A stretch of DNA of 34,191 nucleotides from a virus (taxonomy: Duplodnaviria; Caudoviricetes): positions 1-34,191 of IMG/VR virus record IMGVR_UViG_3300035135_000934; one strand, 5' to 3'. The position numbers and the translations under genes are program-made. Shown piece after piece: positions 3,160-12,313 of this stretch; the first letter of the stretch is position 1; every line of letters starts with the position of its first letter. The notes beneath the pieces are model-generated. The model did no database searches and was not told the DNA's origin. It worked only from the letters and a program-made list of their open reading frames with translations.

Positions 3160-3244
3160 GCGAGAGTGGTGGAATTGGTAGACACGCTGGTTTTAGGTAC
3201 CAGTGCCGCAAGGCGTGAGAGTTCGAGTCTCTCCTTTCGCACCA
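3160..3244 (+). tRNA. tRNA-Leu (TAG)
   Basis: Class II tRNA with long variable arm, CTGGT-TT-TAG-GT-ACCAG, ACCA end. Confidence 0.96.
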
Positions 3245-7092: not shown

Positions 7093-7320
7093 ATGAGATT
7101 TCTTTTAGTTGTAGTATTGACAGTGGTAGCAAGCTGTAGTACAATGGGAGAACAAGTGGATAAAGGTCTCTGTCTCAAGTGGACTACCTTTACCTCTGAG
7201 AGACTAGAATGTGCCGGTGGTCGTGGTGTTGCGCAACAAGTTTGCGTAGTGCGAGAAATACAAATGGCGCACTGTTTAGTTTGGGAATGGCCAGAAGGTC
7301 GTCCGGAGGGTGAATCGTGA
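7093..7320 (+). CDS. Small Cys-rich lipoprotein (paralog 1)
   Basis: Lipobox VASC, four further Cys starting CLKW. Confidence 0.75.
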   Translation: MRFLLVVVLTVVASCSTMGEQVDKGLCLKWTTFTSERLECAGGRGVAQQVCVVREIQMAHCLVWEWPEGRPEGES

Positions 7321-8111: not shown

Positions 8112-8179
8112 AGTCCCGAGACGACTCTAAACTCGCTCTGGTCGTTACGCCCGTCTCCTGAGTATGAGAAAAACTGCTC
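8112..8179 (+). ncRNA. Candidate pair of small H-type pseudoknots in an intergenic leader
   Basis: AGTC/GACT with CGAG/CTCG, and TCTC/GAGA with GAGTA/TGCTC, each with an A-rich connecting loop. Confidence 0.4.
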
Positions 8180-8768: not shown

Positions 8769-9115
8769 AAATTTTAACCATACTAGTATTGATGCTTTTG
8801 CCATTGGGGGCTAACGCGCAGAAGTATGGTACAGACAATTTTAGGTTTCTGGAAAAGGAATACGAAAATCTTACGCCAGGCGTAGAGTTCGTTCTAATGA
8901 AGAACGAACGAGAATACGATGCAGTGAGACGCAAGCACCTTGGAGTGCAGTGGGACACGATTAGTGCGTTTACCTACTGGAACCAAGAAAAAGGGACTTG
9001 TAAGATCTATATTAAAGATCCCGCATGGAAGTACGAACCAGAGTTGATCGGACACGAAGTCGCTCACTGTATCTGGGGTCGATTCCATAACGGACGAAAG
9101 GGGATGAAGAAATGA
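8765..9115 (+). CDS. Secreted HExxH metallopeptidase-like protein
   Basis: Signal peptide MKILTILVLMLLPLGANA; GHEVAHC. Confidence 0.7.
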   Translation: MKILTILVLMLLPLGANAQKYGTDNFRFLEKEYENLTPGVEFVLMKNEREYDAVRRKHLGVQWDTISAFTYWNQEKGTCKIYIKDPAWKYEPELIGHEVAHCIWGRFHNGRKGMKK

Positions 9116-9486
9116 TGTCGAAGTTGTTTGATGTGTTAGAGGAACTGATTCTAGGTTCCATCGTGATCGCAACGATGTTTGCGGTTGGGGAAGAGATCTA
9201 CCGTTTGATCGACGCAGGGACAGTCGCACTGACTGATCTTCTGCTTCTCTTCATCTATGCAGAGGTTGTGGGTATGGTTGCGATCTTCTATCGAAGTCAC
9301 CGCATCCCCGCAGTCCTACCGATCATCATTGCGACTACCGCATTGAGTAGAATGATCATCCTACAGAGCAAGGACTTGGATCCTACGATAATCCTGTTCG
9401 AGGCGGGCGGTATTGTTCTACTAAGTATAGGTGCATTCATCATGACATACCGCGATCGGTTTGTCAGTGAGGATGAACTCCAATAG
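9112..9486 (+). CDS. psiE: Phosphate-starvation-inducible PsiE family membrane protein
   Basis: Four TM helices, LLLFIYAEVVGMV..FY...RIP...PIIIA.TALSR.II signature. Confidence 0.85.
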   Translation: MMSKLFDVLEELILGSIVIATMFAVGEEIYRLIDAGTVALTDLLLLFIYAEVVGMVAIFYRSHRIPAVLPIIIATTALSRMIILQSKDLDPTIILFEAGGIVLLSIGAFIMTYRDRFVSEDELQ

Positions 9487-9589
9487 GGTCTGATTCCCCT
9501 ATCCAAATAACTGAATCAGTGGTGCCCAGAAGAGCAGAGAGTCTCGTTCCTCTCTCAAATCAACGAACGAGTGGTACCGGAGGCTGGAA
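9483..9589 (+). ncRNA. Tandem pseudoknot plus anti-tRNA-3'-end RNA element (two covarying units)
   Basis: Unit 1 ATAGGG-T-CTGATTC-CCCTAT-CCAAATAACT-GAATCAG-TGGTGCC...; unit 2 AGAGAG-T-CTCGTTC-CTCTCT-CAAATCAAC-GAACGAG-TGGTACC...; both stems perfect in both units despite different sequences. Confidence 0.75.
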
Positions 9590-9596
9590 AGAATTG

Positions 9597-9673
9597 GCGG
9601 GTGTAGCTCAGTTGGATAGAGCGTCGGTCTACGAAACCGAAGGTCATAGGTTCGACTCCTATCACCCGCGCCA
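9597..9673 (+). tRNA. tRNA-Arg (ACG)
   Basis: GCGGGTG/CACCCGC, TCGGT-CT-ACG-AA-ACCGA, CCA. Confidence 0.96.
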
Positions 9674-10103: not shown

Positions 10104-10111
10104 TATAAATA
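10104..10111 (+). promoter_or_regulatory. T4-type late promoter
   Basis: TATAAATA about 30 nt upstream of ATG 10143. Confidence 0.8.
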
Positions 10112-10142: not shown

Positions 10143-10823
10143 ATGAAATCTTTCAAAACATTCCTAGACGAAGGTGTCAACGATCCAGCAATCTTCAAGG
10201 CAATTTTCCTTGCAGGTGGGCCAGGCTCTGGTAAGTCATTCATCGTCGGTAAAACCGGACTGACCTCTATGGGTTACAAGGTCGTCAACTCTGACGACGC
10301 ATTCGAAGCTGCCATGAAGAAGGCAGGTATGGAGATGGACCCAGAAAACATCTTCTCTGTGAAGGGTCAGGAAATCCGTGGTAAGGCAAAGGCACTTACA
10401 GGTAAACGACAGGCACGTTACATCGAAGGTCGTTTAGGACTAGTCATTGATGGTACAGGTAAAGACCCAGACAAGATTGTGACTCAAGCAAGACAACTGA
10501 TCAAGTTAGGTTATGATGTCGCAATGGTCTTCGTAAACACCGATTTAGAAACTGCTATCAAACGTGATGCCGCTCGTAAGAGAACTATCGGTGAAGTCGA
10601 AGCGACTAAGTATTGGAAAGAAGTGCAACGCAATATCGGTCGTTACCAACAGTTGTTTGGTAAGAACAATTTCCTAGTAGTCGACAACTCAGAAGGTAAG
10701 GACTACCAAGCAGAGACCCTACGCGCATATCGTGATGCGACAAAATTCACTAACAAGGCACCAGACAATCCGAAGGCGCAAAAGTGGATTGCGGACGAAA
10801 AAGCGAAAGCAAAAAGGTCTTGA
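10143..10823 (+). CDS. P-loop kinase (zeta toxin/AAA_33-like) with capsid-targeting-like N-terminus
   Basis: Walker A GGPGSGKS, VNSDD, LVIDGTG; starts MKSFKTFLDE. Confidence 0.8.
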   Translation: MKSFKTFLDEGVNDPAIFKAIFLAGGPGSGKSFIVGKTGLTSMGYKVVNSDDAFEAAMKKAGMEMDPENIFSVKGQEIRGKAKALTGKRQARYIEGRLGLVIDGTGKDPDKIVTQARQLIKLGYDVAMVFVNTDLETAIKRDAARKRTIGEVEATKYWKEVQRNIGRYQQLFGKNNFLVVDNSEGKDYQAETLRAYRDATKFTNKAPDNPKAQKWIADEKAKAKRS

Positions 10824-10848
10824 CACCCCCCACACACTGTAGTATAAT
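10820..10848 (+). promoter_or_regulatory. Consensus sigma70 promoter for the peroxidase gene
   Basis: TTGACA-17 bp-TATAAT. Confidence 0.85.
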
Positions 10849-10891: not shown

Positions 10892-12313
10892 ATGCAACGC
10901 TTACTTACTGTAGCGGTATCTAGTGCACTTATCAGTGCGTGTTCTGGTGGAGGTTCTGACACCCCACCACCCGTCGTGACAGACCCTGTCACATCCACAC
11001 CCGTAACGATACCTGTCGACCCCGCAGTCGAGGCACGTGAAAATCTACTCACGTTACTTGACTCTACGTCACCGACAGGTACTTACGAGGCATACATCCT
11101 ACCCGCAAGTGATGACTTCGACAACATCCCGCAGGATCCCAGCAATGAGATCACCGCAGAGAAGGTCGCACTGGGTAAGTTAATCTACCACGAGACTGGT
11201 ATCACTGAAGGTGACATCGAGTCTAGTGAAGGTACGTTCTCGTGCTCGTCTTGTCACAATGCGCAGAACGGATTCAAGTCTGGTATCCGTCAGGGTATCG
11301 GTGAAGGCGGTATCGGTTTCGATCACCGTATGGTTATGGAAGGTGTTGACCTTGCAGACGTTGATGTCCAACCCGTGACATCTCCTACAGTTCTAAACAC
11401 TGCGTTCCAAGAGGTCATGTTGTGGAACGGTCAGTTCGGTAACGAGATCGGTGGTGTGGTCAACGTGGGTATCGATCCCGACCGTCACTTCACAGAAGGT
11501 ACACCGAAGGAAGCGAACCTACGTAACCTGTCCGGACTAGAGACTCAGGCAGTCGCAGGTCTTGGTGTTCACCGTATGGGAACGGACAATCCCAATTCAC
11601 TACTACGCACCAACGAGACGTATCGTCAGATGTTTGAGGACGCGTATGGTGTCGCAGAACCCGACGACATGTTAGAGGCTGCCGCACTTGCGATTGCCGC
11701 ATTCGAACGGACTGTCCTATCTAACGAGGCACCATTCCAAGAGTATCTCCGTGGAGATGAAACTGCGATGACTGAGAAACAGGTCGCAGGTGCAGAGGTG
11801 TTCTTCGGTAAGGGTAACTGCCACACGTGTCACAACGGTGCCGCACTATCGTCACCCAAGGGTGCGATGGCAGACGATATCTTCATGACGTTGGGTTTCC
11901 ACGATCTCGATATGTGGGAAGATACAATCGGTGAAGTGAATGAAGCAACACGTGAGGGACGTGGGGGATTCACTGGAGATACACTGGATAAGTTCAAGTT
12001 CAAAGTACCGCCACTTTACAATCTTATAGATACAGAAGTATTTGGTCACGGTGCGTCGTTTGCATCTGTTGAGGATGTGGTTCGTTACAAAGTAGAAGCG
12101 ATCCCACAACACCCACAAGTAGAAATTGGCGACCTTGACTACAGGTTCACTCCTCTGGATCTAACAGAAGATGAGATCGCGAATCTCGTTGAGTTCCTAG
12201 AGGTCGGTTTGAAAGATGACAACTTGATGCGGTATGTCCCTGAGTCTTTACCCAGTGGTAACTGCCCTGTTAACAACGACGAAGTGTCGCGACAAGAGTT
12301 GGGTTGCGACTAA
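10892..12313 (+). CDS. Di-haem cytochrome c peroxidase (CcP/MauG family) lipoprotein
   Basis: Lipobox LISAC, haem motifs CSSCH and CHTCH, KVALGKLIYHE, WNGQF, FKFKVPPLYNL, PLDLTEDEIANLVEFL. Confidence 0.9.
   Translation: MQRLLTVAVSSALISACSGGGSDTPPPVVTDPVTSTPVTIPVDPAVEARENLLTLLDSTSPTGTYEAYILPASDDFDNIPQDPSNEITAEKVALGKLIYHETGITEGDIESSEGTFSCSSCHNAQNGFKSGIRQGIGEGGIGFDHRMVMEGVDLADVDVQPVTSPTVLNTAFQEVMLWNGQFGNEIGGVVNVGIDPDRHFTEGTPKEANLRNLSGLETQAVAGLGVHRMGTDNPNSLLRTNETYRQMFEDAYGVAEPDDMLEAAALAIAAFERTVLSNEAPFQEYLRGDETAMTEKQVAGAEVFFGKGNCHTCHNGAALSSPKGAMADDIFMTLGFHDLDMWEDTIGEVNEATREGRGGFTGDTLDKFKFKVPPLYNLIDTEVFGHGASFASVEDVVRYKVEAIPQHPQVEIGDLDYRFTPLDLTEDEIANLVEFLEVGLKDDNLMRYVPESLPSGNCPVNNDEVSRQELGCD

Follow-up and report, generated by a model that had tools for sequence, protein, structure and literature searches.

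An uncatalogued, conserved phage RNA system lies among the tRNA genes of the stretch of DNA analysed here (the window; 34,191 nucleotides), a 34 kb phage fragment with eight tRNA genes, all on the + strand. Two H-type pseudoknots in the window belong to a real family of such RNAs, and each is followed by a tail complementary to the 3' end of a leucine tRNA; the fold, its covariation, the complementarity and the specificity for isoacceptors absent from the phage gene set were all established computationally. Because the tails are complementary to the ends of particular tRNAs of the likely host and not to those of the phage, they are likely to bind and disable the tRNAs on which the host relies most. 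Judged from sequence, the units probably act in trans as anti-tRNA RNAs, capturing and thereby inactivating host tRNA-Leu(CAG) and tRNA-Leu(CAA), with a third unit directed at tRNA-Pro(GGG); that they bind these host tRNAs at all appears very probable from modelled pairing. The original prediction of an RNA directed at host tRNA-Leu was thus supported, and the isoacceptors can be named as CAG and CAA.

The two leucine-directed units and their flanking genes are arranged as follows.

9112..9486, + strand: psiE-family gene (PF06146), whose stop codon overlaps S1 of unit 1
9483..9519, + strand: unit 1, H-type pseudoknot of type A (S1 6 bp, L1 1 nt, S2 7 bp, L3 10 nt)
9520..9534, + strand: tail 1, a 15-nt complement of positions 76-62 of host-type tRNA-Leu(CAG)
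9536..9571, + strand: unit 2, H-type pseudoknot of type A (S1 6 bp, L1 1 nt, S2 7 bp, L3 9 nt)
9572..9588, + strand: tail 2, a 17-nt complement (16 Watson-Crick pairs, 1 G·U) of positions 76-60 of host-type tRNA-Leu(CAA)
9597..9673, + strand: phage tRNA-Arg(ACG), 3' of unit 2

Two units of the same architecture had been described within 9483..9589, and stems, loops and tails were all found at those coordinates; the knot of unit 2 also closes tail 1 on its 3' side. Apart from units 1 and 2, neither strand of the window has a tight Watson-Crick H-type pseudoknot, and their fixed 6/1/7 geometry matched twice there versus twice in total in 40 dinucleotide shuffles (both strands). A 1-nt L1 and a 7-bp S2 are the geometry of the T2/T4 gene 32 pseudoknot, and the units share its two stems, 1-2 nt L1, 6-7 bp S2, lack of L2 and covariation. 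Both are compact H-type folds with two coaxial stems (gene 32: available text of PMC3014915); the present units differ in lying outside any gene 32 leader, in tRNA clusters, and in carrying an anti-tRNA tail. Their position is also not that of the gene 32 translational operator, since they follow psiE or tRNAs and precede tRNAs, terminators or small knots.

Searching IMG/VR and metagenomes by pattern revealed at least 102 distinct type-A units in marine phage tRNA clusters, although the carrier sequences are related, so that counts overstate the number of independent events. When the S2 strands were left free in the pattern, 94 of the 120 matches listed paired at 7/7 positions, and all 95 listed matches with at least 6 S2 pairs ran on into TGGT (TGG being part of this pattern). 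When TGG was left out, S2 was fully paired in 104 of the 114 matches listed; 99 of these 104 intact folds continued into TGGT and the other 5 into TGAT, bearing out the expectation that homologous pseudoknots would carry tails starting with TGG. The TGAT-tailed units (L401, L414 and L532) have no firm target, Thr(CGT), Arg(CCT), initiator Met, Ala and Asp tRNAs being possible.

Stem differences had been read as compensated, and two-sided changes were indeed seen at 11 of 13 pairs across 79 of 80 cores (the one left out was the C48C1 copy); in slid controls on the same 79 cores pairing dropped to 36-56%, and the 100% pairing of S2 is circular because S2 pairing was used to select the aligned cores. 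Almost no variation is seen in L1, in the top pairs of the two stems or in the AAAUAA loop, positions that the search patterns had largely fixed. A search of the window with Rfam at the gathering score returned tRNAs only, and a search by E-value over the regions of type-A and type-B units gave nothing credible. Single-strand folding of the region, which cannot show pseudoknots, gave a z of 0.98, and a pattern with a 9-nt loop produced 9 matches with no unit among them. The type-A pattern was found in 0 of 41 candidate host genomes, and in a scan for units directed at an E. coli-type Leu(CAG) end the knot was present in 0 of 80 pattern matches.

Real tRNA-Leu 3' ends complementary to the tails over at least 12 nt were found for both. 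Tail 1 pairs with Leu(CAG) of genome G405 at 15/15 positions, all Watson-Crick, and with Leu(CAG) of genome G001 over 15 nt with one mismatch; tail 2 pairs with Leu(CAA) of G001 over 17 nt with one G·U. The tails accordingly stand as complements of tRNA-Leu 3' ends, with the qualification that the exact 17-nt complement of tail 2 ends no tRNA in GTDB, where it gave 41 chance-level matches, none of them at a tRNA 3' end. One exact match (L132) lay in degenerate repeats behind tRNA-Leu(CAA) of G001 and led to the target family. These repeats, at L132:97-317, are degenerate tandem copies of the tRNA-Leu(CAA) 3' end behind that gene; similar repeated tRNA ends occur in G414, G440 and other genomes.

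G001 is catalogued as 'uncultured Alteromonadaceae bacterium', from a marine gammaproteobacterial family. The exact 15-nt target of tail 1 is present in 7 of 41 genomes of this family and its one-mismatch form in 32 of 41, the anticodon CAG being confirmed in the genomes fetched; the same Leu(CAG) end occurs outside the family too. The target end of tail 2 is present in 37 of 61 genomes of the family and, among 401 class-wide genomes, in G001 alone. The phage Leu(TAG) is identical to that of G405 at 79/85 positions versus 72 and 70 in two other genomes of the order; because the phage tRNAs are nearer to those of the G001 family than to those of other genomes of the order, this family is the likely host group, as judged from tRNA likeness alone. 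G405 encodes 37 tRNAs in 3.3 Mb, a low count that suggests an oligotroph.

Specificity was assessed by predicted pairing energies, which ignore tRNA modifications, tertiary structure and EF-Tu. Against a panel of the 37 tRNAs of G405 plus a few of G001, duplex energies placed 37 of 41 distinct tails on Leu(CAG) or Leu(CAA), versus 53 of 410 shuffles that keep TGGT. Cofolding with whole tRNAs ranked Leu(CAG) or Leu(CAA) first for 54 of 65 type-A tails, at a mean of -13.1 kcal/mol versus -8.2 kcal/mol for 130 controls; the remaining 11 of 65 did not rank either first. In 48 tails chosen by their first bases, pairing was nearly complete across tRNA positions 76-67, remained strong as far as 63 and fell almost to background past about 61, and departures from the target were often G·U wobbles. 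Many tails contain a bulge or mismatch.

The leucine tRNA supplied by the phage appears to be spared.

3160..3244, + strand: phage tRNA-Leu(TAG), the isoacceptor supplied by the phage and not targeted

As anticipated, this tRNA is predicted to bind the two tails weakly (-2.6 and -3.3 kcal/mol, versus -13.2 and -22.5 kcal/mol for the host targets). All 40 distinct phage Leu tRNAs adjoining units read TAG (31) or TAA (9), and in each of 55 comparisons of a tail with its own phage tRNA-Leu, host CAG or CAA was predicted to bind better. A target among the tRNAs of the phage itself, or pairing in cis, was rejected. One 10-nt complement of a tail lies elsewhere in C48C1.

Tails change together with the target tRNA. 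Loci L580:998-1110 and L585:998-1110 carry a tandem like that of the window with both tails altered: 3 of the first 12 positions of tail 2 are changed, and the tail switches to Leu(CAA) of another family, found in other genomes of the order, which the L580 tail matches at 12/12. Tail 1 of these loci fits neither Leu(CAG) of G580 nor that of G517, both of which possess one, and an Arg(ACG/TCG)-type end fits it over 10 nt. In several further units the tail is a clamp, in which cofolding predicts 7 nt on the 3' end and 8 nt on the 5' strand of one Leu(CAG), leaving its other arms folded; for these tails the scores of Leu(TAA) or Leu(GAG) come close. Retargeting, clamp tails and the existence of a second fold are hard to explain without RNA-tRNA pairing.

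This second fold, type B, occurs upstream in the window.

8112..8138, + strand: third unit, type B, a small coremin-like pseudoknot directly 5' of a TGG tail
8139..8152, + strand: tail B, predicted clamp on tRNA-Pro(GGG), with 6 nt on the 3' end and 7 nt on the 5' strand
8154..8179, + strand: small closing pseudoknot capping the 3' side of tail B; the same kind follows the unit in 33 of 114 type-A contexts

Among 38 host tRNAs, tail B is predicted to bind Pro(GGG) best (-11.1 kcal/mol), followed by Pro(CGG) at -9.5 kcal/mol. The unit is also present in G442 and in C48C1, the latter encoding no tRNA-Pro; where a Pro tRNA is present in type-B loci, it is Pro(TGG). When the fold was sought with no tail in the pattern, TGGT stood at a fixed offset in 59 of 126 matches and 67 of 126 were without a TGG tail; a tRNA was found in the locus of 35 of the 59 TGGT-tailed folds versus 1 of the 67 untailed ones, which lie in L815-L934, mostly small tRNA-less contigs, and probably represent RNA-virus elements of the coremin kind. 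Of 29 distinct type-B tails, 19 prefer Pro(GGG) or Pro(CGG), straight or clamped, versus 25 of 87 controls that keep six bases. Type-B units at L821, L832 and L899 have TGGTCC followed by a hairpin, and those at L826, L896, L909 and L912 have TGGTGG tails; their targets are not firm, with Thr(CGT), Arg(CCT), initiator Met, Ala and Asp as candidates. Tail B can also form 7 bp with window sequence upstream of it, but this pairing was rejected, as relatives do not conserve it.

The type-B and 3' cap knots share with coremin/xrRNA-C of RNA viruses a GUC-loop-GAC hairpin and an AAAC spacer pairing back to the loop (as far as described in the available text of PMC10520033). They differ in their setting within tRNA clusters of a dsDNA phage, in the TGG tail and in a loop of 7 nt, longer than YGAD/YGNNAD, and they have no Rfam match; nuclease resistance is putative here. 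Such a motif is unexpected in dsDNA phages.

The placement of the leucine-directed units between psiE and tRNA-Arg, part of the original prediction, is correct, but the association with psiE is incidental: only 10 of 20 psiE loci carry a unit, and most units adjoin other genes or tRNAs. Dependence on psiE was rejected on this count, and a readthrough or frameshift signal for psiE was rejected by inspection, the stop codon lying inside S1. Association with tRNA genes is much closer. A same-strand tRNA lies within 300 nt of 68 of 73 units, with no opposite-strand tRNA in the loci of the 73, and in 42 of 114 contexts among the matches listed the unit begins no more than 15 nt after a tRNA. A small knot follows on the 3' side in 33 of the 114 contexts (versus 2 in 570 shuffles); a tRNA follows in 27, a terminator in 13 and another unit in 10, and in the other 31 nothing was found. 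This context would fit small RNAs cut from tRNA precursors with both ends protected. In each of 6 RNA-library runs, from six studies, contigs span one or both units, though they carry no strand, end or level and may reflect DNA carry-over.

7117..7145, + strand: sigma-70-like promoter consensus (11/12), the nearest strong candidate upstream, by consensus match only

This promoter candidate lies 2.3 kb upstream of the units with no late-promoter motif between, a weak hint in the sequence that the units may be expressed early.

Codon usage was compared between the phage and 63 host ORFs from tRNA-flanking loci. CTG shows the largest host-minus-phage gap of any codon (45.6 versus 7.1 per 1000), and by host/phage ratio CTG ranks 2, CCC 4 and CCG 9. 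For TTG, the codon decoded by the unit 2 target, the gap nearly vanishes (16.4 versus 12.7 per 1000; rank 23). The bias in CTG, CCC and CCG favours sequestration of host-biased isoacceptors, with TTG only at rank 23.

The mechanism that we propose would begin with co-transcription of the units with the phage tRNAs and their release by tRNA processing; an RNase P cut at the 5' end of tRNA-Arg(ACG) would create the 3' end of unit 2. The pseudoknot would shield the 5' end of the RNA, and the 3' end would be protected by a second knot, a terminator, a tRNA or the next unit. The free ACCA of an uncharged tRNA would serve as a toehold for UGGU, after which the tail would open the acceptor (and T) stem by strand invasion. 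Stacking of the resulting helix on stem 2 would bury A76, so that the tRNA could be neither charged nor delivered. Host genes with many CUG, CCC and CCG codons would slow down, leaving synthetase and amino acid for the U34 isoacceptors used by phage codons. We lean slightly towards a broader view in which the units form a programmable toolkit, with interchangeable nuclease-resistant knots and retargetable guides that would strip Leu CAG/CAA, Pro GGG/CGG and perhaps Arg/Ala/Thr isoacceptors, shifting decoding to phage codons without protein.

Two other readings accept the same contact with host tRNAs and differ in its consequence. The RNA could be a guide or scaffold, the tail-tRNA helix on its pseudoknot recruiting a phage or host nuclease or modifying enzyme; the complementarity evidence serves this equally, and the near-invariant L1, stem tops and AAAUAA loop, at positions largely fixed by the patterns, could be a protein site. 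T-even phages cleave host tRNA-Leu1(CAG) by nuclease activity, so that the identical host isoacceptor is removed while a U34 isoacceptor is supplied; here, in contrast, the agent is predicted to be an RNA, and the predicted targets extend to Leu(CAA) and Pro. However, the units have no constant protein neighbour, following psiE, other genes or tRNAs, a single role would be served by two unrelated folds, and conservation of the loop is expected because it is needed for tertiary packing of an H-type knot; we regard recruitment as unlikely. (The T4 tRNA list, in the available text of PMC4810235, includes a phage tRNA-Leu(UAA).) It is less likely still that the RNA counters a host response, concealing uncharged 3' ends from RelA or CCA-attacking defence enzymes, or holding tRNAs reversibly. 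Such shielding would suit a toehold offered by the free 3' end alone, the bulges and mismatches that would weaken binding in many tails, and the weak TTG gap, a poor fit to the codon model; tRNA-targeting defences are also common (accessible portion of PMC10264068). But a masked tRNA is useless for translation, and it is the isoacceptors least used by the phage that are targeted, with those most used left alone; a protective role would predict the reverse.

The remaining readings place the function in cis or in the DNA. A T-box-like sensor, or a processing or stability signal in which pairing with uncharged tRNA alters downstream termination or maturation, would account for units always lying on the tRNA-operon strand, and for the terminator that comes next in 13 of 114 contexts. 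T-boxes also pair through UGGN, which in their antiterminator contacts the NCCA of an uncharged tRNA. The units nevertheless would invade 10-17 nt rather than 4 nt, lack a stem I with a specifier codon that reads the anticodon, have no constant expression platform and no Rfam match; moreover, the 3' neighbour varies among small knot, tRNA, terminator, unit or nothing found, and the terminator stem, where seen, starts beyond the tail core. We consider a cis role very improbable. Theta ribozymes are also small pseudoknotted RNAs beside phage tRNA genes, but they are HDV-like and self-cleaving and process the adjacent tRNA (both as given in the available part of PMC10879173). The units are single H-type knots of 36-37 nt, not HDV-like nested double pseudoknots, have no Rfam match, and their tails match other (host) tRNAs. 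Least probable of all is a primer-binding site for tRNA-primed reverse transcription, or a DNA scar such as an attachment site or inverted tRNA fragment. tRNA 3' ends commonly serve as integration sites, and the TGG start and 15-17 nt length of the tails resemble the retroviral site of 18 nt, at which viral RNA starting with UGG pairs with the last 15-18 nt of one host tRNA, opening its acceptor and T stems (as described in the available text of PMC13191261). The complement of a tRNA 3' end (about 18 nt in retroviruses) is present here at 15 and 17 nt, but its cognate enzyme is not: five carrier records, which include two at least 90% complete plus C48C1, had no reverse transcriptase by the RVT_1 profile (PF00078; 0/5) and no tyrosine integrase (PF00589; 0/5). 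In this dsDNA phage the site is preceded on its 5' side by a stable knot rather than a template, and the G·U-type substitutions and clamp tails, unlike the identity expected of an attachment site, make sense solely as RNA pairing.

Kyanoviridae phage C48C1 (OQ984149) is the sole cultured match to the window among 50,697 phage records; two divergent queries against cultured phages gave no genuine match beyond it, and a literature search for its host found none. The carriers are marine T4-like phages. Near-complete ones (3 of 5 records) encode a gp23-type capsid, and the capsid proteins of the carriers are 73-84% identical. The carrier at L371 (G445:C1:25000-40000) has 36% GC and is about 40% complete at 146 kb, and is therefore probably a much larger phage; its tRNAs are Leu(TAA), Ile(TAT) and a Ser-type tRNA called with anticodon ACT. 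Elsewhere in the window, an isocitrate lyase family gene (248-1501, +; PF00463, E 2e-94), an unusual metabolic gene for a phage, lies directly 3' of tRNA-Glu; a P-loop kinase-like protein (10143-10823, +; Zeta_toxin/AAA_33 profiles) is preceded by a T4 late-promoter motif at 10104; and a di-haem cytochrome c peroxidase-like protein (10892-12313, +; PF03150) has a perfect sigma-70 consensus ahead of it at 10820-10848.

A literature search for phage RNA antisense to host tRNA ends, with most subscription journals outside its range, found none. The available text of PMC10690425 contains no such motif, and four tail strings were absent from its searchable supplements; the type-A fold may be among the unannotated candidates of that study.

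Why phages carry tRNAs is a long-open question, usually answered by codon compensation or escape from host nucleases (available text of PMC10264068). If true, the predicted inactivation of host tRNAs would provide the active counterpart, in which a phage silences chosen host isoacceptors by RNA while supplying U34 tRNAs, and would represent both a mechanism of host shut-off and translation takeover and a natural antisense strategy against tRNA. The predictions are sharp and cheap, specifying which tRNA and which base pairs, and C48C1 is a cultured carrier. The tails may also help to predict the hosts of uncultured phages, and such a system could give a function to some of the small RNAs of T4-like tRNA clusters that still lack an explanation.
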